A stretch of DNA of 63,290 nucleotides, counting the filler, from Basidiobolus ranarum (Eukaryota), in the NCBI GenBank assembly GCA_040143965.1. It is 2 parts of 2 records of this genome, joined end to end, with 100 filler letters (N's around TTAATTAATTAA, not from the genome) between each part and the next. Parts side by side here need not be neighbours in the genome. Positions count along the whole stretch, not along the records: positions 1 to 31,734 come from JASJQH010000088.1; 1 more part is not named here. One strand, 5' to 3'. The position numbers were made by a program, and so were the translations under genes. This document shows, piece after piece, positions 23,803 through 37,317 of this stretch. Every line of letters starts with the position of its first letter. Position 1 is the first letter of the stretch. The notes below the pieces were generated by a model that saw only the letters and a list, made by a program, of their open reading frames with translations, had not been told where the DNA came from and did no database searches.

Positions 23803-24838
23803 ATGAGAGGCATATAGAGAAATAGAATATTCATACCATAGCCGAGTAATTATCAAGTATATTAACGAATACGCAGAGACAAGGTTTATCACTCGTGTGA
23901 GGCACCAGATATGTTCAAAATTTTGGTTCGGCTAGGTAGAATTTTTATTGCGCAATTTGGAAATTTAAATGGATTGGTGTTTCTACTAGTCAAGGCCTGC
24001 TTGAATTCGATCATATGTGGCATGTATGTAGATGGGAAATTACAACTCGTTAAGCTGTGACTGGTATGGTATGAATGGCATTTGGATTAGCCAAGACCAG
24101 TTTGGATGCTGTGATGGCGTCTATACTTGTCCAATACATCTACGTGTGGATATGCGTGTAGATATGCGTGTACACCGCCATATGTTGCAAATTCAAATAG
24201 TCTGACTTAAATCTGAATACTCTTCGAATGCTAGCTGAACTTGTGCATTATCATCTGGTAAATCTCCCATATAAAGCTTCTTTTTTTCTCCAATCAACTG
24301 AATTCAATTTCATTTTTTTCTCTTTTCTATTGGTAAACTACCTGTGAGTTCTTTCAGATCGAGGCTTGATTTGCTCATCGTAGCTGAGAGTCGTATTTCA
24401 GATGGGGAATTTCTCACCAATCATTTTACCCTCACTCAATTCTTCTTCCCTAATATAGCCTTATTCTACAATATATTCGTCGCATCTTCCCTATTCTTAC
24501 GGAGTTTTCTTAAACGACTTTAACTGAGTTCCTCTCTGTTGGGGGACAATTAGTGAAATAATCTACCTTATTTTCACCAACTCTTAATACAGCTTCTTTT
24601 ATTGACTACACTATACGTAGTCAGCACCTTTAATTCTAGTTGGAACTTTGTAAAAGTTCGTTACATTGGTGATTTCAATAGCTTCTTTTACGCTTTGCTT
24701 TTACCCCTTTTACACAACGAAACTGTCTACCTGTTTCATATCATTTTTAGTGCTTGCCACTTCCGCAATTAAGCTTAAAGCACAACCGAAAACCTGACAC
24801 CACTACCTTTAACAGTGACCGAACAAACTAATTCTAAT

Positions 24839-25450
24839 ATGTTGTTTCCAAGATCTCATTTTACTGCTACTGCTGTACGTCCTTTGATAGCTCGTTCAAC
24901 GTGTCAGAGTGCTTCTCGGCCACCTACGAGTACTCCTATTCGACAATTGCGTACGAATTCGCTTGTGAGCAACACTACACACCCCTCTGTAATAGCACCA
25001 ACGCTTAATCGTTTTCGCGGTTCATTATTACCACAATCTTCCACCCCTGGAGTGACCATGTTAAACAACGAGTCTCGTTCTCACTTTCATTCGGTCGCGG
25101 CGGAATCTTTTTATCCTTCAAATAACCAATTATTTGGAGAATTCTCATATACTAATACCCCTTCATACTTTGGAAGTACTAGTGCCTCCTTGACGTCGTT
25201 GTCGACTTCTCCGCCACAAAGTGATTCTGAACTTACTTGGGAGGACTTCACATTATATGATGAGGAAGGTCTTGGTGGTGATTTTAGCTGGGATATTGGT
25301 GGTGTTACACCTGCGCTGTTCGCTCCACTGGCTGAGGTTTTCGCTTCAGCTATCTCCAATACTAATGAAGGTAAAACCAGTGACTCTGAGTTAGAACAAG
25401 AGGGAGCATTTGTTTCCGACGAAGACAACCACTCCTATGACAGACAGTAA
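24839..25450 (+). CDS. Hypothetical protein (~203 aa), basic S/T/R-rich N-terminus and acidic C-terminus
   Basis: Long open frame in AT-rich surroundings with raised GC; ATG at 24839. No domain recognised. Confidence 0.6.
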   Translation: MLFPRSHFTATAVRPLIARSTCQSASRPPTSTPIRQLRTNSLVSNTTHPSVIAPTLNRFRGSLLPQSSTPGVTMLNNESRSHFHSVAAESFYPSNNQLFGEFSYTNTPSYFGSTSASLTSLSTSPPQSDSELTWEDFTLYDEEGLGGDFSWDIGGVTPALFAPLAEVFASAISNTNEGKTSDSELEQEGAFVSDEDNHSYDRQ

Positions 25451-26729
25451 AGTCATGACTGGAGAGGAATTATTTACTTGCGTTGTATAGCAGAATAGGG
25501 CTATCTTCCTGTGACTCCATGAACTGTTTTGTGGAAGAAATTTCCGAGATTTTCCACTCATTGTCAGGGGGAGTTCATGGTACCGGTTATTGGTCAATGT
25601 TTTGTGTTCTATATTTTAAAGAACCCTCACCCATCAGTTATCTCATTCTTAAGCTTGACTTTATTCAAGTAGAAAAGAATACCTTGGTTTCTACAGAGAA
25701 ATGAACTTTCCTTGGTTTGGAAAGGAAGTTTTTCTTTACCCAAGATACTCAACATATTAAGCTGGGCTTGTGGTTCTTGTTTATCTCCTTGATATTATAA
25801 TCTATTTCTTATCTTTTAAATTTATCTTTACTTTCAAAATTGAACCTATTTTACAAAAGCAGTTTCGTATTGTTCTTCGAATCGGGTTCAACTCCTTTTC
25901 CTCTACTCTACCCTCCTCTCCTCTACTACCATTTCTTTTTTATCCTACGTTAACATGTACCGATCCCCAAAGTGCGGATCCTCTTTACTAAATCATTAAA
26001 TCACTACTGGAATTTGACTTGGTTTAATGTATTCTTGTCAAATAATAGGTTAAAGGAAGAAATGAACATCATTTAATTAAATTATTTTTAAGTGATATAT
26101 GGTTTTGATATTCCGCAGTATCGGGGTCAGAGTCATCCCCTACATTTAGAGCTTCAGCCAGTATTATGGGCTGAGTATTACAAAGATGGTCGTGGACGTG
26201 GACGTAAACGTAGATGTAGATGTATTAGGTTTAAACTAGTTACTAAACTATGAATATTGACCTATAAAAACGTAACCTTAGCAACCGCACGTCATTACGT
26301 GCACGTGCGAAACTTTTATTCATTGTTAAGGTTACATTTACAAAAATATTCAATAGAGGGTTAAGGCTTAGTGACTTGGTGATATTAGCAATGATTAGGA
26401 TATTTTCTATGGAATTTAATATCCTGTTCATAGAGAATTTCCTATATTTCAGATAGTTTATGGATAGTTTGAAATTTCTCGGAGATTTTATAGATAGATA
26501 AAAATTCAACAGGCTTTTAGTTGTCTTCATCTTGATTCATGGTCACTCTTTGACTTATTGGCATGTTTGATCTTCCAGCAAAGCCCAGTGAGTCATTTAT
26601 GGTTCTACTAATTTCTCATCGAATCCTTTGTTTGTCCTTTGAAACTGCCCAGGAAGTCCACCCAGCTTATCTATAAAAGAAGGTATTGGTGTTGATACAT
26701 CAATATCCCATTGTAACCAACCATCTCTC

Positions 26730-27809
26730 ATGTCTACTTACGATATTTACTACTTGGATATTCTAGGGCGTGCGGAAACAGCCAAACTTATCTTGTTATT
26801 AGCAGGGGTAAGTTTCTTGAATCACTAGTATAAAAATAGTACTAATTATTGTGTAGGAGAAATATGAATCTAAAGATATTAAGGTTGGCTCCAAATTAGT
26901 ATATCAGTCATTCGAATCCATCTATTTATAATCATTAGTTTGAGGATTGGCCTGAAGCTCAAAAAGATGCACCATTTGGTGTGGTACCTTATCTCGTGGA
27001 ACATCAAGAGGATGGCTCAGTAAGTGTAACTATTTGGTGGACTCGATTAGGTTGTGACCAAGTCTAATGACAGTTAGAAATTCGTCCTAGGGGAATCCCA
27101 TGCCATAGAACGTTACTTGGCTAGGAAGTTTGGTGAGTTTTAGTGATATCTAATGGGCTCACAAATAGATCGAGAAATTGATTCTACGCATCCTAGGATT
27201 CCTAGGTAAAAATAATCAGGAAATGGCATTCTTGGAGAGTGTTTGTGATAGCGGAAGTAATGTTAGATTTCAATTCACTTCATCCCTTGAAATGTTCCTC
27301 TGATGAGTTGTCTTAGGTTACATGGGGGAGAAATTCTTTGCTGCACTTGATTTGGAAGGAGAGTCGAAGGTAAGTACCCAACTCCGTGTTTGTTGTCCAA
27401 TCTATAAGTAATAACTTTTATTCATATCAAAGGAAAAAGCTACAAAGCAATTCTATGAAGAAGTTATACCAAAATATATTCGGTCTCATGAGAGTTTGCT
27501 CGCCAAGAATGGAAACGGATATTATTTAGGTCAAGAGGTAAGCAGTTATATTCATTTCATTAAATCATTCCAAATCATCATGTCTAAACATTCTTGGTTC
27601 ATAAATAGTTCACTGTGGCTGAGTTCTTGAATATGCAAATGATACGTCTCATCAATGGAGTCACTGGTAAGGAAATCTTCTCGGAGGCCCAATCCCCTAA
27701 CATCTGGAAGATGTACCAAAATGTACGCAACCACTCTGCATTTGATGAGTATTTTGAGGTATCTGAGGCTAAACTGAAAAAGCTCCATGAGAAACTTAAG
27801 CCGTCATAA
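26730..27809 (+). CDS. Glutathione S-transferase (sigma-like), about 8 short exons
   Basis: MSTYDIYYLDILGRAETAKLILLLAG/EKYE.../EDWPEAQKDAPFGVVPYL.../LGESHAIERYLARKFG...LLAKNGNGYYLG; frame is kept across GT-AG introns. Confidence 0.9.
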
Positions 27810-28742
27810 ATGCTCTAGCATAAATAAACATCTCATTATTGAAATCTAATCATGATGGTTGTGGTTAGGGTTAGGGTTACCTAACTAGATAATAGTAACA
27901 AATCCACCAGTCAGTCTCAATGACAACTAGATGGTCGGTAAAACGAAATTCCCGCTTTCAAAGAAAATGTATACATCGCCTACTCATAAAATTATATAAT
28001 AGAGAGGAGTTGTCATATTCCATTTGTATGTAGAAATACATTAGCGTCAGTTATAAGTTTCACATTTATCTTGTCAACTGTCGGTTCCCTCAGGTCGCTG
28101 CATAGAACTCGCAAAGGTGCCAATTAGAGAATAAATTGATTAGAGTAAAGGGAACCGTTCAGTGAAGATATCTCATTACTGATATACCGTCTCTCGAAAA
28201 AATCTGTCCTAGCTTGGATAGTGAGCTCAGGGGTTGATGCAAAGAAGCCACTAAGGTTAGGGTTAACCGTACTCTCAGATATTAAACTGCGACAATGTTT
28301 ACTATGACAAATATTATCTACTTTTCTAAATATAGTAACATGTTAGGTTACCTCTAGTTTAACTCGAATGCCATTACTTAGTGTCCAAGGCTTCATTAAA
28401 CCACTGTGAAATAAGAACCGGGAGCAGAGTTCATAGTTACACGGAACGAGACTTATGAAAGTGGTAGACGCTATAATATCCATTACACTGACACCCTTAA
28501 TTCAAGCCTCGAAAATGAATAATAGAATCGGTGGATTGGTTTCAAAATCCCTCATTTTTCTAAGTGGACTTTACTACCACCTAAAATGGAAGATATTCCA
28601 AAGATATACAAATCTTTCATTAATAATCATGAGATCGAATACATGGCATGGCTCGTATACCAGCATAAAGCTATAAATTCTAGCATCTAGGTCAATCAAA
28701 AAATATCAACCAACACTTTCTGGAAAAGTGAATCAAAGAAAA

Positions 28743-29444
28743 ATGTACACTTTAACTCCCTTCCTTATCTTGTCTATCTGGCTTCATAGCTTCATCGTGC
28801 AGCCTTTACCATTGTACAATACTAACGTTCAGAATATGAATCGATCAGACTCGGGCATGCTGGTCCTACCAAATGCTTACCTACCAAGTAGTATCCAAAC
28901 CAAGCTCTCCAGGAGGAATCGAAATTCCACGGGTAACCGTTATCAAGGAAATCAGTCAGGTGGTAGCCCCAACAATAACAACAGCAATAATGGAAATACA
29001 CGCAGCACCGGGTACAAAAGCAATGACAGAGTAAATGGGAACAATAACAATCAGAGCAGTAATAGTAAAGGCAATTCATCTGGAGCCATAGGCACTCTCC
29101 AGTTCCGATTTAATAACGGGCAATGCACTGATTGGGCAGATGCTAGATATGCTCAATTAACAGGCCATCACGTAGATTGGTCAGGCGATGCGTTGAGTTG
29201 GCCTTCTTCAGCTCGTAACTCTGCTGGGTGGACCGTATCAAGCCAGGCGAAGTCGCCATCCATTATTGCTCTGCAACCCGGAGTTCAGGGCGTCGGAAGT
29301 GATGGTCATGTGGCGGTTGTTGAAAGTATTGAATCCAATGGAGACGTTTATACCAGCAATTACAATTACAATGGTGGACCTTATATCAAAACCTTTGTTA
29401 CTTTTAAGCCAGGAAATGGGGTTAGTTTTATCTGGCATAACTGA
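28743..29444 (+). CDS. Secreted CHAP-domain (cysteine/histidine-dependent amidohydrolase) protein, intronless
   Basis: Hydrophobic N-terminus MYTLTPFLILSIWLHSFIVQP, N/S/G-rich linker, then GQCTDWA (catalytic Cys), WSGDALSW, GHVAVVE (catalytic His) and SNYNY. Confidence 0.88.
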   Translation: MYTLTPFLILSIWLHSFIVQPLPLYNTNVQNMNRSDSGMLVLPNAYLPSSIQTKLSRRNRNSTGNRYQGNQSGGSPNNNNSNNGNTRSTGYKSNDRVNGNNNNQSSNSKGNSSGAIGTLQFRFNNGQCTDWADARYAQLTGHHVDWSGDALSWPSSARNSAGWTVSSQAKSPSIIALQPGVQGVGSDGHVAVVESIESNGDVYTSNYNYNGGPYIKTFVTFKPGNGVSFIWHN

Positions 29445-30134
29445 TTTCCATTTATTAAGGCAGCAATTGTGCCACTAAAATGTTGGGGTATTTGTTAGCA
29501 TTAGTATGTTAGTTAGCGTTAGGATATTTGTTCACTGGTCAATAAATTTAACACTAAGGAGTGCTTATTAAAGAGCTTATACCAGGACACATGGCTGAAT
29601 TGTAATATATGTTGGAATTGATGCAGATCAGCTAGCTAATAACAAGTATTTTAACATTGTTGATGATTGACCTGAGAGATCTATTCAATGGGTTAGGGTT
29701 GCACTACATACTTCGTGATCTGCATTCAAAATCCTTATTTATTTGAGATGATGGGGTTCGAGTGCCAGGGCCAGAAGCAAGTATATTTACTACAAACTTG
29801 CCAGAATCCACACCTAGAGAGTGACGTCTTAAGGCATTGATCAGATGCACGTAGCTACTACTATGGATTACAATCAAGTCCATCTAGTATAATCTAAAAT
29901 TGCCAAAGAATCTGGATAACATACACCTGTTTCAACCAGATTGAATGGAATAGAACAACTTGCACCACGTTCACAGCGATCATTTTCTATAGAGAGAGTG
30001 ATCGACCAGAGACTTGCCATTGACTGTCTTTGTGGTGTACTCACCAGATCGAAAGAAAAAGCTTAAATACCAGCTATGTTTTCTAGCAAAAGCCATCAAC
30101 ACACCAATCTCCTCGGTGCCTTACTCTGCCAGTC

Positions 30135-31220
30135 ATGAAGTGGTTTGGATTAATCATCGCCTCGTTGTCATTGAGCTATACAGCTTTGGCAACTCCAATC
30201 ACCAAACGTCAAGATCTTACTACCATTGACACCAAAGAGCTCGGTATCCTCAAGACTCATGCTAGATATGCGTCAGCTGCTTATTGTCCTCAGGCTAAGG
30301 TAACAGATTGGTCATGTGGTGAACGTTGTGTAGGCCGTCTGAATGTAACAACCTACTTTACCAACGATGCTACCGGCATAGCCGGATATATTGGTTACAA
30401 CAACGAAGAAAAGAAAATTGTCATTTCATTCCGCGGGTATGGGTTCTTGTGGACATAAAGCAATTGAGATCGATTCAACTAATATCTTGTGATTCTTATA
30501 GATCCTCTAATTGGGCTAACTGGGCAAAGAATCTGGCCATTCTACCAAAAACATTTGTCTACCCTACGGCAAACGAAAATGTCAAAGTCCACAGCGGTTT
30601 CTATGAAACTTATTCCAGCGTTGAAACAACTGTTCGTTCAGGCCTTAAAGATGTCTTGACACAACTAAAAGATGAAACTGATCCATACAAATTAGTCATC
30701 ACTGGACATTCCTTGGTGAGTTGAATCAATAATAGTTCATTCTTCACCCATTCATTAATCACTAATGGACTTGTTTCAGGGAGCGGCGGTCGCAACTTTC
30801 TGCGCCATGGATATCAAGAGATTTTATTTAAATCCTCGCAGTGGAAGATCCTTCAAGTCAGAGTTACTAATCATTGATCGCTCACAAATATACCTACACA
30901 CTTATGGACAACCTAGAGCCGGAAACGCTGATTTCTCACAACTAGTGTATAATACCTTTGGCTTGAATACTACACGCACAACATTGGCAAGAATCACTAA
31001 CAATCGTGACCCAGTGACTAGACTTCCACCTCAAGATATGGGTTATTTCCATCATCCACATGAGATCTACATCCGCAAGGACTCTACCACCGTAGCTTGT
31101 CAGGATGTTATCGGTGGCAAAGTAAGAGAGGACCCTAATTGTATCCTCGGAGTAACTTTTCCAATTGGCTTCAGTGATCATGGAAAATACTGGGATATCC
31201 AGTTTGGTACTGGTTGCTAA
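30135..31220 (+). CDS. Secreted class 3 lipase, two introns
   Basis: Signal peptide plus KR site; YASAAYC, IVISFRG/S, VHSGF, TGHSL/GAA (GxSxG), TYGQPRAGN, DPVTRLPP, DH.KYW. Confidence 0.93.
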
Positions 31221-31734: not shown

Positions 31735-31834
31735 NNNNNNNNNNNNNNNNNNNNNNNNNNNNNNNNNNNNNNNNNNNNTTAATTAATTAANNNNNNNNNN
31801 NNNNNNNNNNNNNNNNNNNNNNNNNNNNNNNNNN
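31735..31834. other. Assembly gap / artificial contig spacer (44 N + TTAATTAATTAA + 44 N)
   Basis: Exactly 100 nt with a central palindrome that gives stops in all six frames. Confidence 0.97.
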
Positions 31835-33443: not shown

Positions 33444-36400
33444 CTAATTGGTGCCTAAATCTTGTTGAATGACTAATGAGTAGTATTGTCCCTTAAGTCC
33501 CATTAGTTCATCGTGAGTGCCCTGTTCGTTGACCACTCCATTCTTGAACACGTAGATGACATCTGCCTTCTGAATGGTGGATAGACGATGAGCGACCGCA
33601 ATGGTGGTTCTACCCTTGGCTGCGTTATCAAGTGCCGTTTGAACCACCTTCTCTGACTCGGCATCCAAGGCGGAGGTGGCCTCATCCAATAACAGAACCT
33701 TAGGGTTTCTGATCAAGGCGCGAGCAATGGCAATACGTTGTTTCTGACCACCAGAAAGTTGAGAACCTTTGCTACCAAGTGGGGTGTCATATCCCTTGGG
33801 AAGTCCTACGATGAATTCATGGATGTTGGCATCGCGTGCCGCTTGTTCAATCTCTTGTTGTGAAGGAATACGATCGACCAAACCGAAGCAGATGTTTTCC
33901 CTAATGGTCATATCGTAGAGAGTTGGCTCTTGACCGACCAAGGCGATGTGTTTACGTAAGTCATTGATGTTCATTTGACGGACATCCTTGCCATCGATCA
34001 TTACATTTCCGGAAATAACGTCGTAGAAACGCTCGGTAAGGCCAATGACGGTACTCTTACCACATCCAGATGGACCAACCAAGGCAGCATATTGTCCAGG
34101 TCGGATATCAAGGTTGAGTCCTCGAAGAACAGCCACACCTGGACGTGTTGGATAGCGGAAGTGGACGTTATCGTAAGTGACACGACCTTCTATGGCATTC
34201 ACCTTGTCTCCTTCGTTGGTAGAAACATCGATCAAAGGTTGACGATCCAGAAGATTAATGATATGACTGGCAGCGGATTTGGCTTTACTGATGTCTGGGA
34301 CGAAGGAGAAGATGTTACCAGCACTTTGAGCACCGAATACGATGGCCATGAAGATGACCATGAACTTCTGAAGATCGTACTCCCCATTAGCGATAAGGGT
34401 ACCACCATACCAGAAACCAAGAGCGTTTACCAAGAATACGATGGCTTGTGAGAGAGCGAAGACGAAAGATGAGCCGAATGCATTCTTGATGCCTTCCTTC
34501 ACTGGTCCCTCGAGTTCCTGGTGGTACATATCACATACATCCTTCTCACGAGTGAGCGAGGCGACGGTACGCACTGCGGAGGCGGCTTCACAGGCAAGTT
34601 GTGCAGAATATTCGTATGCACGTTTCTGCTGCTCTTGATAACCATTCATCATCTTCATTCTGATCACACCAGCACCCATCAACACTGGCACACATGCGAC
34701 TACTACCAGGGTAAGCTTCCATCCGTACACAAAGCCGATAATGAAACCACCGACAATTGTGCAGAACACTTGGAGAATCGTACCGAGCGTAACACCGCTT
34801 ACACCTTGGACGTGAGTAGCATCAGTGGAAAGGGCTGAGACCAAGGCACCAGTGTTATTGGAGTCTCTATCGAACCATCCAATCTCTTGACGAAGCATTG
34901 CATTGAAAGCTCTGGAACGAATTCTCTCAATCAATCTTTCACCAGCGATACCAAAGAAGGTGCCCTGAGCAGTGTTGGAGATAAAGGCACAGCAGGCGAT
35001 CACCAAGAACATGGATGCCCAGAAGTTAATGTCCTCGATTAAAGTAGGGTTTCCTTTATACATGACAGCCATGATCTTCGAGAACAAAATAGCAAAAATG
35101 GGGGTGACCAAGCCGGAGACGATCGATCCAGCCAAACCAAGCAACATGAAAGATAGCTCAGGTTTACTCAATAGATAAACACGGTAGATAACGTATATAA
35201 GGGAATGGCTCTTTTCTTCATCACCATTTTCAAGGCTTAATTGGTTTCCAGTAGAGTACATCGACTGAATGGTGGTTTTACGTCTTAGTTGGGAGTCAAT
35301 CGATTTAACAGCGTCGATATTGGTATCTTCTGGAGGCAGTGTGTTGTCAAGATCATCGTCATCTTTCTTCGTGATTCTCTGGAGTTCAACCAACTTGTAG
35401 TATGCACCTTTAGATTCAATCAGTGATTTATGTGTTCCTTGTTCGACGATGTCGCCCTTCTCCATCACGATAATTTGATCGGCATTACGGATGGTGGAAA
35501 GTCGATGAGCAATAACAATGGTAGTTCTACCAGAACTAGCGCGGTCCAATGCTTGTTGAACGATCCCTTCCGATTGAGTATCTAGGGCGGATGTAGCCTC
35601 ATCCAGAAGCAATATACGAGGATCCTTCACGATGGCTCTGGCGATGGCAATTCTCTGTTTCTGTCCGCCAGAAAGTAGGAAGCCTCTTTCACCTACGTGG
35701 GTATCATATTGATCCGGTAGCAAGGTGATGAAATCATGAGCATTGGCCATTTTACACGCTTCTTTGATGAGCTCCATCTTCTTCTCGGGAGAAGCGTTCT
35801 CGTGAGGAGTTCCGATTAATCCGTGGGCTACATTTTCTGCGATAGTGCATCTGAATAGAGTTGGCTCCTGAGAGACAAGTCCGATTTGTCTTCTCAACCA
35901 GTGGACATTTAACTCATCAATTGGAGTGCCATCCAAAAGAATTTCTCCTTGAATAGGATCATAGAATCTTTCCAACAATTGGATGATTGTAGATTTACCA
36001 GAGCCACTAGCACCTACCAACGCAACCGTGTGACCAGGTTGGATAGTGATATTGATTCCTTGCAAGATGGGAACATCAGGACGAGATGGGTAGTGGAAGT
36101 AAATGTTACGGGCTTCAATTAATCCTTGAGTTGGCTGAGTAGGCTTAATTCCTTCCTCAGAAAACGAGTCAATCAGTGGGATTCTATAAATAGCCTCATA
36201 CAGTTTCGCGGCCGCACCCTGAGCAAACGAGAAAGCCTGGAGATTTGGGGCAATATGACCAAGAGAGAAAGCACCAATCATCACAGCGAAGAAAACGTTC
36301 ATCACCTGACCCACGTCAAGTTCGTTATTGTTGATAAGTTTCCCGCCAAACCAGAAGGCAAGTGAATAAGCTGCATAAATGATAAGAAAGATCACACCGA

Positions 36401-37317
36401 TACCCAATCCGGTTAGAAGGGATTTTTTCATTCCTTGCTTCTTGGCATTGGCGATGTTCACATCGTACATATCCGCCAGTTTCTTCTGCTGACCAAAAGC
36501 TACAGTGGTTCGAATGGAGGAGAACACCTCTTCAGCGAGGGTTCCTGAAAGGGAGTAGTAATCCAAAGCTTTCTTGACGTATTTCGAATTGAAGAAATTC
36601 AAAACTCCCACGGAGATGGCAATTAATGGGATAATAACACACAACACCAAAGTGAGCTTCCAGTTTCTAGTGAAAGCGATGATAAAAGCAGAGATGAAGG
36701 TTGCGATGTAATTGATTGTTTGTGGAGCCTTTTCCGAGATACCGTCTTGAACCAAATGGGTATCGCTGGTGATTCTGGTGGTCACCTCACCAGCACCCAA
36801 TTTATCAAACCAAGCAATATCTTGACGAAGAACCGCTTCCAAGTATGACTCACGGATTTTTCGTGTTTGACGTTCACCGGCATAGACCCATGTGCACATG
36901 TAGCCGTATGTGGTAACCAGAACAGCTATGGCGAGGTACACGAAGTACAATGCGTATTTACCGATCTCTTTCTTGAATTGATCTGGTGTCATTGTTCCCT
37001 GCATCCAACCACTCATAACACCTACCATCTCACCGAAAATAATTCTAAAGCAAAACGAAGAGTTAGTTAGTGAATGGAAACTAAATGGAGGTTCTCTTCA
37101 TTTCTACTTACGTCATAACAGGCATACCAGCGCCTGCAATCATGGCACAGACAATACCTATGATCATGAGAGTCCAATCGAAAGATGTGGCGAAGTTGAA
37201 TAACTCTCTCATGGAAACTTTGGTTTCCTTCACATTGGTCTTGGTATCCAAGGGGATCTTTTCATTCAAAGTCGATTCCCTGTCGTTAGCGGAAACTTTC
37301 CGCTCATTAGTCGCCAT
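33444..37317 (-). CDS. MDR1: Full-size ABCB (MDR/P-glycoprotein) transporter, one intron
   Basis: Two TMD-NBD halves; Walker A GASGSGKS and GPSGCGKS, LSGGQKQRIAIARA, LLLDEATSALD. Exon 1 ends GMPVMT|gtaagt. Confidence 0.97.

Follow-up and report, generated by a model that had tools for sequence, protein, structure and literature searches.

Why should an early-diverging fungus encode, as a short uninterrupted gene between spliced neighbors, a protein whose one recognizable domain is overwhelmingly the property of bacteria and their phages? The gene in question lies at 28743..29444 (+) in a stretch of Basidiobolus ranarum DNA (assembly GCA_040143965.1; 63,290 nucleotides, filler included, joined from two parts, of which positions 1 to 31,734 come from JASJQH010000088.1), here called the window, and its predicted product is a CHAP (peptidase C51) protein. 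The reading that we favor, with a probability of roughly 0.6, is that it encodes a secreted cysteine peptidoglycan hydrolase (MEROPS C51), descended from one ancient transfer of Ktedonobacteria type and used on bacteria. The parts of this reading differ in strength: the product is very probably a secreted CHAP enzyme, a bacterial origin of the gene is likely, and the odds that the enzyme lyses bacteria appear a little better than even. An initial annotation had taken the gene for a horizontally acquired, domesticated bacterial toxin; the gene is real and intact, and is older and more deeply embedded in fungal evolution than was first supposed.

An intact CHAP domain behind a predicted secretion leader

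The ORF listing contains a single ATG-to-stop open reading frame (ORF) at 28743..29444 (+), a complete intronless coding sequence, stop codon included, for a predicted secreted protein of 233 amino acids. Residues 1-233 align with residues 1-231 of a paralog, P0005, and because paralogs such as this one align end to end, no intron is needed. CHAP (PF05257) is the sole Pfam family in the ORF at E<=1, matched at E 6.8e-13 and 49.4 bits against a cut-off of 26, with residues 123-208 covering profile positions 6-81 of 81. The Pfam match, the confidence of the structural model, the Foldseek comparisons below, and the fact that this is the sole part common to the bacterial relatives, together place the catalytic domain at residues 118-233 (29094..29441, +). 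A sequence search of the PDB returned seven matches at E<=1, all of them CHAP proteins, the best being that of Staphylococcus saprophyticus (2k3a, E 3.2e-9), with which GQCT, GHVA and NYNGGP align; Cys128 and His189 also align with 2lrj, and the best PDB relatives share only 26-33% identity with the query.

A papain-like alpha+beta CHAP fold is confidently predicted. In the AlphaFold2 model, computed from a 52-row alignment, the core (residues 121-233) mostly exceeds a predicted local distance difference test (pLDDT) score of 90, helix 128-140 begins at Cys128 and strand 189-196 begins at His189. Foldseek matched this model to CHAP structures with a probability of 1.00, the best with a root-mean-square deviation of 1.9-2.5 Å over 113-119 columns. 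It returned 20 PDB matches at E<=1e-3, and those listed are CHAP proteins or CHAP-containing lysins and amidases, led by 9euf_E (E 8.2e-7) and including 5t1q, 9eum, 2k3a, 2lrj, 8ej5 and PcsB (4cgk), as well as Ly7917, LysGH15 and the LysK domain CHAPK (4csh).

The putative catalytic residues are Cys128 (codon 29124..29126, +; motif GQCT), which aligns with the Cys of 2k3a, and His189 (codon 29307..29309, +; motif GHVAVVE). The His is invariant and the Cys at least 90% conserved in the family alignment used here (A1), and among 39 fungal copies Cys128, His189 and Glu194 are each kept in 38 and Asn208 in all 39. A third catalytic polar residue (Glu, Asp or Asn) presumably follows the His at a distance of about 17 residues, as we take the CHAPK literature to hold. 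Asn206 fits this expected position, opposite the Glu in the S-E-M-N-Y-N-G-G segment of 2k3a; the position is occupied by N in 32 and by D in seven of the fungal copies. To judge by these sequences, the active site has been kept under selection across the fungal copies. The variants are instructive: in P0024 the N-terminal half of the domain is replaced, through either model error or decay; P0002 has Lys for Glu194; and P0004 (B. ranarum K7432_012594) has Tyr at the position of His189 and Asp at 206. The linker of P0004 matches the linker DNA of the query (28873-29031, +) in another frame, with 36/53 residues identical (68%, E 2e-23), which may mean that this copy is frame-shifted and probably decaying, or else that the linker is free of constraint on its amino-acid sequence. 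Such variant copies suggest birth-and-death evolution of the family, in which the copy in the window is intact.

Upstream of the domain, residues 1-19 (MYTLTPFLILSIWLHSFIV; 28743..28799, +), which are followed by QPLP, form a putative signal peptide, with a hydrophobic core at residues 4-14 (mean Kyte-Doolittle hydropathy 2.09), a helix modeled by AlphaFold2 at residues 5-18, and a leader common to most Basidiobolus paralogs, in which it ends V-Q-A/P-L-P (VQALP or VQPLP). The disordered low-complexity stretch that follows, residues 20-117 (28800..29093, +), would serve as pro-region and linker: it is rich in N, S and G (24, 16 and 11 of 98 residues), carries six N-x-S/T sequons, and has pLDDT below 50 across most of residues 37-115. 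Linkers are of low complexity throughout the fungal family, and their lengths differ greatly between copies. Within that of the query, K54-L-S-R-R58 (28902..28916, +) was read from the sequence as a candidate Kex2-type propeptide processing site; in four paralogs of the query's subgroup (P0008, P0009, P0010 and P0012), R57-R58 aligns with P-R, followed by YYSY. The predicted product of the lipase gene downstream also opens with a leader, then a short segment ending T-K-R-Q (MKWFGLIIASLSLSYTALATPITKRQ; window 30135-30215). This T-K-R indicates that a layout of leader plus basic site is not peculiar to the CHAP protein among the predicted secreted proteins of the organism, and the apparent signal and Kex2-type propeptide of the lipase lend some plausibility to processing at R57-R58 in the CHAP protein.

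Much of what the initial annotation had described in the gene itself is borne out by these data, namely an intact CHAP domain with its Cys (GQCT) and His (GHVAVVE), a signal-like N-terminus, the dibasic KLSRR, a low-complexity N/S/G linker, and an ORF without introns; its further statement that both neighboring genes, a glutathione S-transferase (GST) and a lipase, are spliced also agrees with what we describe below.

A gene family shared by Basidiobolus and Entomophthorales

The window holds one CHAP copy only (tblastn), and this copy belongs to a large family. A word-index search retrieved 33 proteins, comprising the query, 28 further Basidiobolus proteins and four from metagenomes. An exhaustive phmmer search of 1.84 billion representative proteins gave 543 matches at E<=1e-3 (259 at E<=1e-10 and 14 at E<=1e-30), of which the best 150 were inspected, together with the best 120 of 513 in a second match list. 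The top 13 phmmer matches are all from Basidiobolus, with paralog E values down to 1e-92, and look-up of the matches added four Basidiobolus proteins (P0034-P0037). The genus thus has at least 32 named paralogs, at least 17 in B. ranarum and at least 15 in B. meristosporus, the best of which is 86% identical to the query; the proteins are already annotated as 'Peptidase C51 domain-containing'. The copies are partly clustered, three having consecutive locus tags (K7432_005993-95) and four lying on one 176-kb contig.

Look-up of deep-branching sequences identified two further fungal members, a partial protein of Massospora cicadina (P0174) and one of Entomophthora muscae (P0155). The latter species has at least four paralogs, three of them with consecutive tags (DSO57_1023045-47) on one 260-kb contig; all begin with a leader, and P0155 continues with a low-complexity linker and a C-terminal CHAP domain. 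A third such sequence, P0148 from a metagenome, is fungal in appearance, with VQAL in its leader and a linker rich in N, Q and G. Among the matches inspected, Basidiobolus, Entomophthora and Massospora are the only named eukaryotes with the subfamily.

Four family members (P0017, P0020, P0021 and P0028) carry an extra Cys-rich module before the CHAP domain, at residues ~20-110, with the pattern C-P-x-G-N-G-L-Y-C-G ... L-Y-x-C. This module has no Pfam match, and an Atlas feature search with that of P0021 gave no usable match. Its weak structural leads (TM-scores 0.55 and 0.52) are accessory parts of Myxococcota M23 peptidases, and it may be a wall-targeting module.

Bacterial relatives of the domain

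Past Basidiobolus, the phmmer matches cover residues ~120-232 only, at 55-60% identity, and the homology between fungal and bacterial proteins is confined to the CHAP domain; the closest bacterial domain is ~64% identical to the query. All named bacterial relatives are Ktedonobacteria, a class of filamentous soil Chloroflexota: they come from metagenome-assembled genomes (MAGs) of Ktedonobacteraceae, from Thermogemmatispora tikiterensis and from Ktedonosporobacter rubrisoli. The Ktedonobacteria proteins are 300-380 amino acids long and begin with a long N-terminal tail, which is followed by a single transmembrane helix, the conserved linker QAATATAVTQDG and lastly the CHAP domain. Bacterial relatives are labeled 'surface antigen' or 'CHAP domain-containing', and some are fused to LysM or SLT lysozyme-like domains.

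The same affinity emerged from genome scans. Among one genome each of 185,579 prokaryote species, 150 of 158 matches to a pattern built from A1 were confirmed, and all 64 loci kept (64/64) belong to Ktedonobacteria/Chloroflexota, namely Thermogemmatispora, Dictyobacter, Ktedonosporobacter, Tengunoibacter and MAGs; the prokaryote-genome scan with the single domain as query gave no matches. Support free of the bias of that pattern comes from the phmmer search and from the Atlas, in which the nearest structure cluster is from Chloroflexota (TM-score 0.93) and the CHAP structure clusters are 100% Bacteria. Within the phylum, 21 of 301 sampled Chloroflexota genomes have strong matches (E<=1e-22), 29 have weak matches only (1e-10 to 6e-6, one being the unpublished genome G041) and 251 have none, leaving a gap between E 1e-22 and 1e-10. 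Three Ktedonobacteria genomes hold four, 11 and 12 CHAP matches, divergent ones included, which are partly in tandem. At one locus (G003:C1:6649331-6656368), six CHAP matches (L072, L080, L082, L085, L088 and L090) lie within 7 kb. Tandem copies in Ktedonobacteria and consecutive locus tags in Entomophthora and Basidiobolus together point to duplication-prone arrays on both sides of the transfer.

Some metagenome relatives have other layouts. P0050 and P0175, from metagenome and Logan data, carry the CHAP domain at the N-terminus, with no leader before it, and a transmembrane helix at the C-terminus, and P0127 has extra N- and C-terminal regions; these three might be lysins of mobile elements. 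A scan of viral contigs with A1 gave two pattern matches and no relative, so that at this sensitivity nothing points to a phage vector.

The nature of these relatives speaks against the domesticated toxin of the initial annotation: those that are named are membrane-anchored wall CHAP proteins of Ktedonobacteria, as distinct from polymorphic-toxin or secretion-system effectors. The interbacterial effector Tae3 is a weak fold match (E 0.026-0.07), which appears to reflect only the common papain-like superfold. A recent, lone, domesticated toxin gene is rejected in view of the size of the family, its sharing with Entomophthorales, its ameliorated composition and the character of its bacterial relatives.

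Proposed mechanism and substrate

In the scheme that we propose, the ~115-residue catalytic domain alone would have passed once, in ancient times, from a Ktedonobacteria-type donor to the ancestor of Basidiobolus and Entomophthorales, and would then have been inherited vertically and multiplied by birth-and-death duplication. In place of the bacterial membrane anchor, the fungus would have added a signal peptide that can be cleaved and a disordered linker, rich in N, S and G and probably glycosylated. The protein would enter the endoplasmic reticulum, lose its signal near residues 19-22, undergo optional Kex2-like trimming after R58 (at R57-R58) and be released from the cell. Outside, the Cys128 thiolate/His189 pair would attack the peptidoglycan stem at a peptide or amide bond, so that bacteria are weakened or lysed, which could serve competition or feeding in bacteria-rich gut, dung and cadavers. 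The sequence cannot tell an amidase from an endopeptidase. To our knowledge fungi have no peptidoglycan, and thus no immunity protein would be needed.

The explanation that survives best beside this one keeps the enzyme and its horizontal origin and changes the substrate. The target could be another amide or peptide, for example a protein of a host or insect, a polyamine or gamma-glutamyl conjugate, or a component of the wall or spore surface of the fungus itself. The CHAP fold serves cysteine amidohydrolases in general, the weaker fold matches of the query include Escherichia coli glutathionylspermidine amidase and trypanothione synthetase-amidase (E 0.015-0.1), and Entomophthorales grow inside insects, where bacteria are not an obvious target. 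Nevertheless, the 20 fold matches at E<=1e-3 and the seven sequence matches are all wall hydrolases or CHAP proteins of staphylococcal, streptococcal or phage provenance; the closest homologs are bacterial proteins of the extracytoplasmic wall, some of which have the LysM or SLT domains mentioned above; and GQCT, GHVAVVE and SNxNxxGG are conserved between fungal and bacterial members. We therefore consider a different substrate unlikely, and retain peptidoglycan as the predicted target of the secreted enzyme.

What weighs against our reading falls into two groups, the second of which concerns sampling and trees and is given with the phylogeny. The first concerns the protein. CHAP enzymes include amidases that do not act on peptidoglycan, the E. 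coli glutathionylspermidine amidase being an example. Further, at the A/P position of the leader motif VQ(A/P)LP the query shows Pro and most paralogs Ala, which makes the point of signal cleavage uncertain, and [KR]R precedes the CHAP domain in only seven of 33 Basidiobolus copies, so that the dibasic site is not family-wide.

Phylogeny and probable direction of transfer

A quick tree of 186 rows placed 33 Basidiobolus rows on one side of a branch with a support of 91 in the Shimodaira-Hasegawa-like approximate likelihood ratio test (SH-aLRT). In a more careful, outgroup-rooted tree of 55 rows, computed under LG+C20 with posterior mean site frequencies (PMSF), the fungi form a clade (100/98) within which Basidiobolus (95/89) is sister to Entomophthorales plus P0148 (93/87). 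The fungi are in turn sister to the three metagenome sequences P0050, P0175 and P0127 (90/66), and together with these they join the clade of Ktedonobacteria genomes at 93/88, the metagenome sequences with N-terminal CHAP domains lying more basally. In an outgroup-free careful tree of 52 rows, the branch between fungi and bacteria is supported at 99/98 and recovered in all of 200 bootstrap trees (100%), from a bootstrap that had not fully settled. No bacterial or unlabeled sequence falls among the fungal rows in either careful tree.

As one branch divides the fungal from the bacterial members, one inter-domain transfer suffices. That it ran from bacteria to fungi is suggested by the maximum-likelihood (ML) root, by the distribution of CHAP among bacteria and phages, and by a substrate found only in bacteria. 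Given that the nearest non-fungal relatives are bacterial, a horizontal origin is the best reading of these sequences, and within the fungi the family appears to be vertically inherited and old. Of the horizontal acquisition proposed in the initial annotation, the bacterial source is supported as likely, and the idea of a lone acquisition falls, since at least 32 Basidiobolus paralogs as well as Entomophthora and Massospora share the family. The nesting within bacteria by which that proposal was to be judged is recovered in the ML tree (93/88), and is not statistically secured by the approximately unbiased (AU) test.

The second group of adverse points is as follows. In the AU test, a placement of the fungi as sister to all bacterial rows is not rejected (delta lnL 5.6, p 0.303), nor is one with Entomophthorales outside Basidiobolus plus bacteria (delta lnL 10.2, p 0.285). 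Quick trees that lacked the extra Entomophthora rows, one of them with 86 rows, fail to resolve the Entomophthorales sequences, which lie close to the root. The trees on which the direction and number of transfers depend were built from 116 CHAP-domain columns, and the rows of the careful trees were thinned by hand, which removed 13 of 27 Basidiobolus and 22 of 53 bacterial representatives. The outgroup consists of three divergent CHAP domains from Ktedonobacteria themselves, on a long branch (1.22). On the side of sampling, most metagenome relatives carry no taxon, the pattern used in the prokaryote scan was built from A1 and is hence biased to the subfamily, and other fungi may hold the subfamily too, since it was the best 150 of the 543 phmmer matches that were inspected.

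Two alternative histories have to be weighed in this light. Basidiobolus and Entomophthorales might have acquired the gene independently, in at least two events, or one fungus might have passed it to another, which would yield the same tree. An AU p value of 0.285 leaves room for non-monophyletic fungi; bacterial horizontal gene transfer (HGT) into Basidiobolus is abundant (PMC7466969), and the relationship of the genus to Entomophthorales is contested (PMC10079182). Fungal monophyly is nonetheless recovered with the outgroup (100/98) and without it (99/98), and both fungal groups share the derived arrangement of leader, low-complexity linker and C-terminal CHAP domain. We regard separate acquisition or passage between fungi as quite unlikely.

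The other history reverses the arrow, with early Entomophthoromycotina-like fungi donating the gene to an ancestor of Ktedonobacteria, or makes the two groups mere sisters, or derives both from a third, unsampled lineage. The subfamily is narrow in bacteria, with strong matches in the 21 of 301 Chloroflexota genomes noted above and with Ktedonobacteria as its only named holders; the split rests on a single branch, and AU p values of 0.303 and 0.285 leave rootings on or beyond that branch; and quick trees put Entomophthorales at the base. Against this, the ML root under a site-heterogeneous model lies inside the bacteria (93/88), CHAP is overwhelmingly a bacterial and phage domain, as the Atlas clusters illustrate, and Ktedonobacteria have both the substrate and 4-12 CHAP matches per genome, divergent ones among them. 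The branches of Entomophthorales and P0148 are long (0.98-1.25), and long-branch attraction to a long outgroup would produce just such a basal position. We regard reversed or sister relationships as very unlikely, and continue to prefer one ancient transfer from a Ktedonobacteria-type donor.

Comparison with known systems

The structurally characterized CHAP hydrolases of Bacillota and their phages (2k3a, the Staphylococcus aureus amidase 5t1q, the phage phi812 hub 9eum/9euf, PcsB 4cgk and LysK CHAPK 4csh) share the Pfam family, fold and motifs of the query. They differ from it in carrying SH3b, LysM, amidase or coiled-coil partners, whereas the query combines a eukaryotic-type leader and a disordered linker with no recognized wall-binding module. 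The CHAP proteins of Ktedonobacteria, such as those of T. tikiterensis (WP_112429574.1, P0193) and K. rubrisoli (P0196), are closer, with 55-64% identity over ~115 residues of CHAP domain and the same motifs. Like the fungal family they are multi-copy and partly in tandem, but their tail, transmembrane helix and QAATATAVTQDG linker are absent from the fungal proteins.

Wall-degrading enzymes of bacterial origin have been turned on bacteria by eukaryotes in ticks, in Trichomonas, in some fungi (GH25) and in an oomycete (CHAP). The Dae amidase effectors of ticks and mites reportedly derive from bacterial type VI Tae toxins, as Chou et al. are said to have described in 2015, and Metcalf et al. 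reportedly documented transfers of GH25 lysozymes across domains in 2014. Dae embodies the same idea as the query, a bacterial wall-degrading enzyme fixed in a eukaryote with a secretion signal, which for the query is a predicted one; the two differ in that Dae stems from interbacterial toxins, while the relatives of the query look like resident wall hydrolases, for which reason the term 'domesticated toxin' does not fit the latter.

The nearest parallel in CHAP itself is Saprolegnia parasitica, for which Jiang et al. (2013, PMC3681718) describe a secreted, duplicated family of seven CHAP genes attributed to bacterial HGT. This is likewise a eukaryotic osmotroph with secreted, duplicated CHAP proteins and a tie to aquatic vertebrates; it belongs to a different kingdom, and no donor was named for it (PMC3681718). 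No Saprolegnia sequence was seen among the labeled matches, in searches that did not specifically test whether the two families are related. In Trichomonas vaginalis, laterally acquired NlpC/P60 peptidoglycan hydrolases are reportedly used on bacteria, with experimental support (PMC6299479, PMC10461829). The concept is the same, a papain-like cysteine hydrolase of bacterial origin; the family is another one, the host is a protozoan, and activity has been demonstrated there, while that of the query is predicted. We propose the T. vaginalis enzymes as a functional model for the query.

Large-scale bacterial HGT into Basidiobolus is already published, as are eukaryotic wall hydrolases of bacterial origin in general. 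Tabima et al. (2020, PMC7466969) give 806, 426 and 212 HGT candidates flanked by fungal genes in Basidiobolus, 61% of them intronless and with native-like composition. The query, from the same genus, matches this profile as given there (PMC7466969), being intronless, flanked by fungal genes and of native-like composition. The focus there is on secondary metabolism, and neither Entomophthorales sharing nor a Ktedonobacteria source for a CHAP family is discussed; the main text lacks the terms peptidoglycan, C51 and amidase, and Table S5 may already list the family (PMC7466969). In the genome paper on E. muscae the terms PF05257, C51, peptidoglycan and 'horizontal' do not occur, PMC8778642 has nothing on the CHAP domain, and among the matches listed in a literature search none ties Basidiobolus, Entomophthora or Massospora to the CHAP domain or to Ktedonobacteria. 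New here are the number of copies in the family, its occurrence in Entomophthorales as well as in Basidiobolus, and its affinity to Ktedonobacteria.

To the systems above, the present family adds a case from a fungal lineage of early divergence, in which the copies are unusually numerous, the apparent donor is an unusual one, and the age would exceed that of the split between Basidiobolus and Entomophthorales. Bacteriolysis by these enzymes, if it occurs, would help to account for the way in which a fungus of gut and dung, and fungi of insect cadavers, withstand bacteria. The family would then also be a source of small lysins, poor in disulfides, that a eukaryote can secrete. Further, should a wider survey confirm its restricted distribution, the CHAP family would be a shared derived character that bears on the placement of Basidiobolus, which is contested (PMC10079182). 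More broadly, and as a doubtful extension that we think likelier to fail than to hold, the family might be a rare genomic change, in which a single Ktedonobacteria-type transfer confined to Basidiobolus and Entomophthorales would unite the 'rogue' Basidiobolus with Entomophthoromycotina, and in which the expanded secreted copies (15-17 or more per genome, with differing linkers and in some cases the Cys-rich module) would form a bacteriolytic arsenal that shapes the bacteria of amphibian and reptile guts and of insect cadavers.

Genomic context

The CHAP gene sits among native genes, with a spliced GST gene and a spliced lipase gene within ~1 kb on each side, and with a GC content (GC) like theirs. 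Upstream, an exon piece of the GST gene at 27415..27630 (+) matches GST_C_3 with 26 bits against a cut-off of 21.6, and is surrounded by short stretches that look like exons, spread over several frames. At ~26643-27067, inspection by eye suggested additional GST-like pieces in other frames. Downstream, a gene for a predicted secreted class-3 lipase occupies 30135..31220 (+): the Lipase_3 profile is split between two frames, with positions 10-72 at 30323-30724 and positions 73-139 at 30759-31217. Two GT..AG introns open the lipase frame in 48 combinations, and one combination with an intron at 30716-30779 restores GHSLG.

The window is AT-rich (GC 0.384) and eukaryotic in character. The CHAP ORF has a GC of 0.444 and a third-position GC (GC3) of 0.432, beside 0.455/0.468 for an ABC transporter ORF in the window and 0.431/0.390 for a lipase exon, and the CHAP-coding DNA of 11 bacterial homologs lies at GC 0.50-0.63. 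That the coding GC matches that of fungal neighbors suggests that the transfer is old. An index of codon usage resembling the codon adaptation index, computed against the ABC transporter ORF, was 0.55-0.68 for all sequences and did not separate fungal from bacterial ones.

The window scan found no N between the GST gene, the CHAP gene and the lipase gene; the only N-runs in the window, at 31735-31778 and 31791-31834 (44 bases each), lie just 3' of the lipase gene and leave the CHAP locus untouched. That contamination or a chimeric assembly, the latter a concern raised with the initial annotation, put a bacterial gene between fungal ones is scarcely credible: the two N-runs 2.3 kb downstream could be taken as a hint of it, but the sequence is unbroken from GST to lipase, GC and GC3 are like those of the fungal neighbors and unlike those of the bacterial homologs, a eukaryote-like leader and N-rich linker recur in 32 paralogs, on contigs as long as 268 kb, in two Basidiobolus genomes that were assembled independently, and the nearest bacterial domain is only ~64% identical.

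Possible transcription signals flank the gene, for which the evidence is weak. TATAAA lies 71 nucleotides 5' of the ATG (28672..28677, +), a motif with a frequency of 0.54/kb on the + strand, so that one would occur by chance within 100 nucleotides in ~5% of cases; AATAAA lies 97 nucleotides 3' of the stop codon (29541..29546, +), with a frequency on that strand of 0.68/kb.

Elsewhere in the window, 33444-37097 (-) encodes a two-half ABC transporter of eukaryote type (ABC_membrane and ABC_tran, each twice) in 1217 uninterrupted amino acids, an intron-free stretch that is unusually long for this window. A stop-to-stop frame of 223 amino acids at 24779-25450 (+) is rich in S, T and P with an acidic C-terminal part, and matches no Pfam family at E<=0.01.

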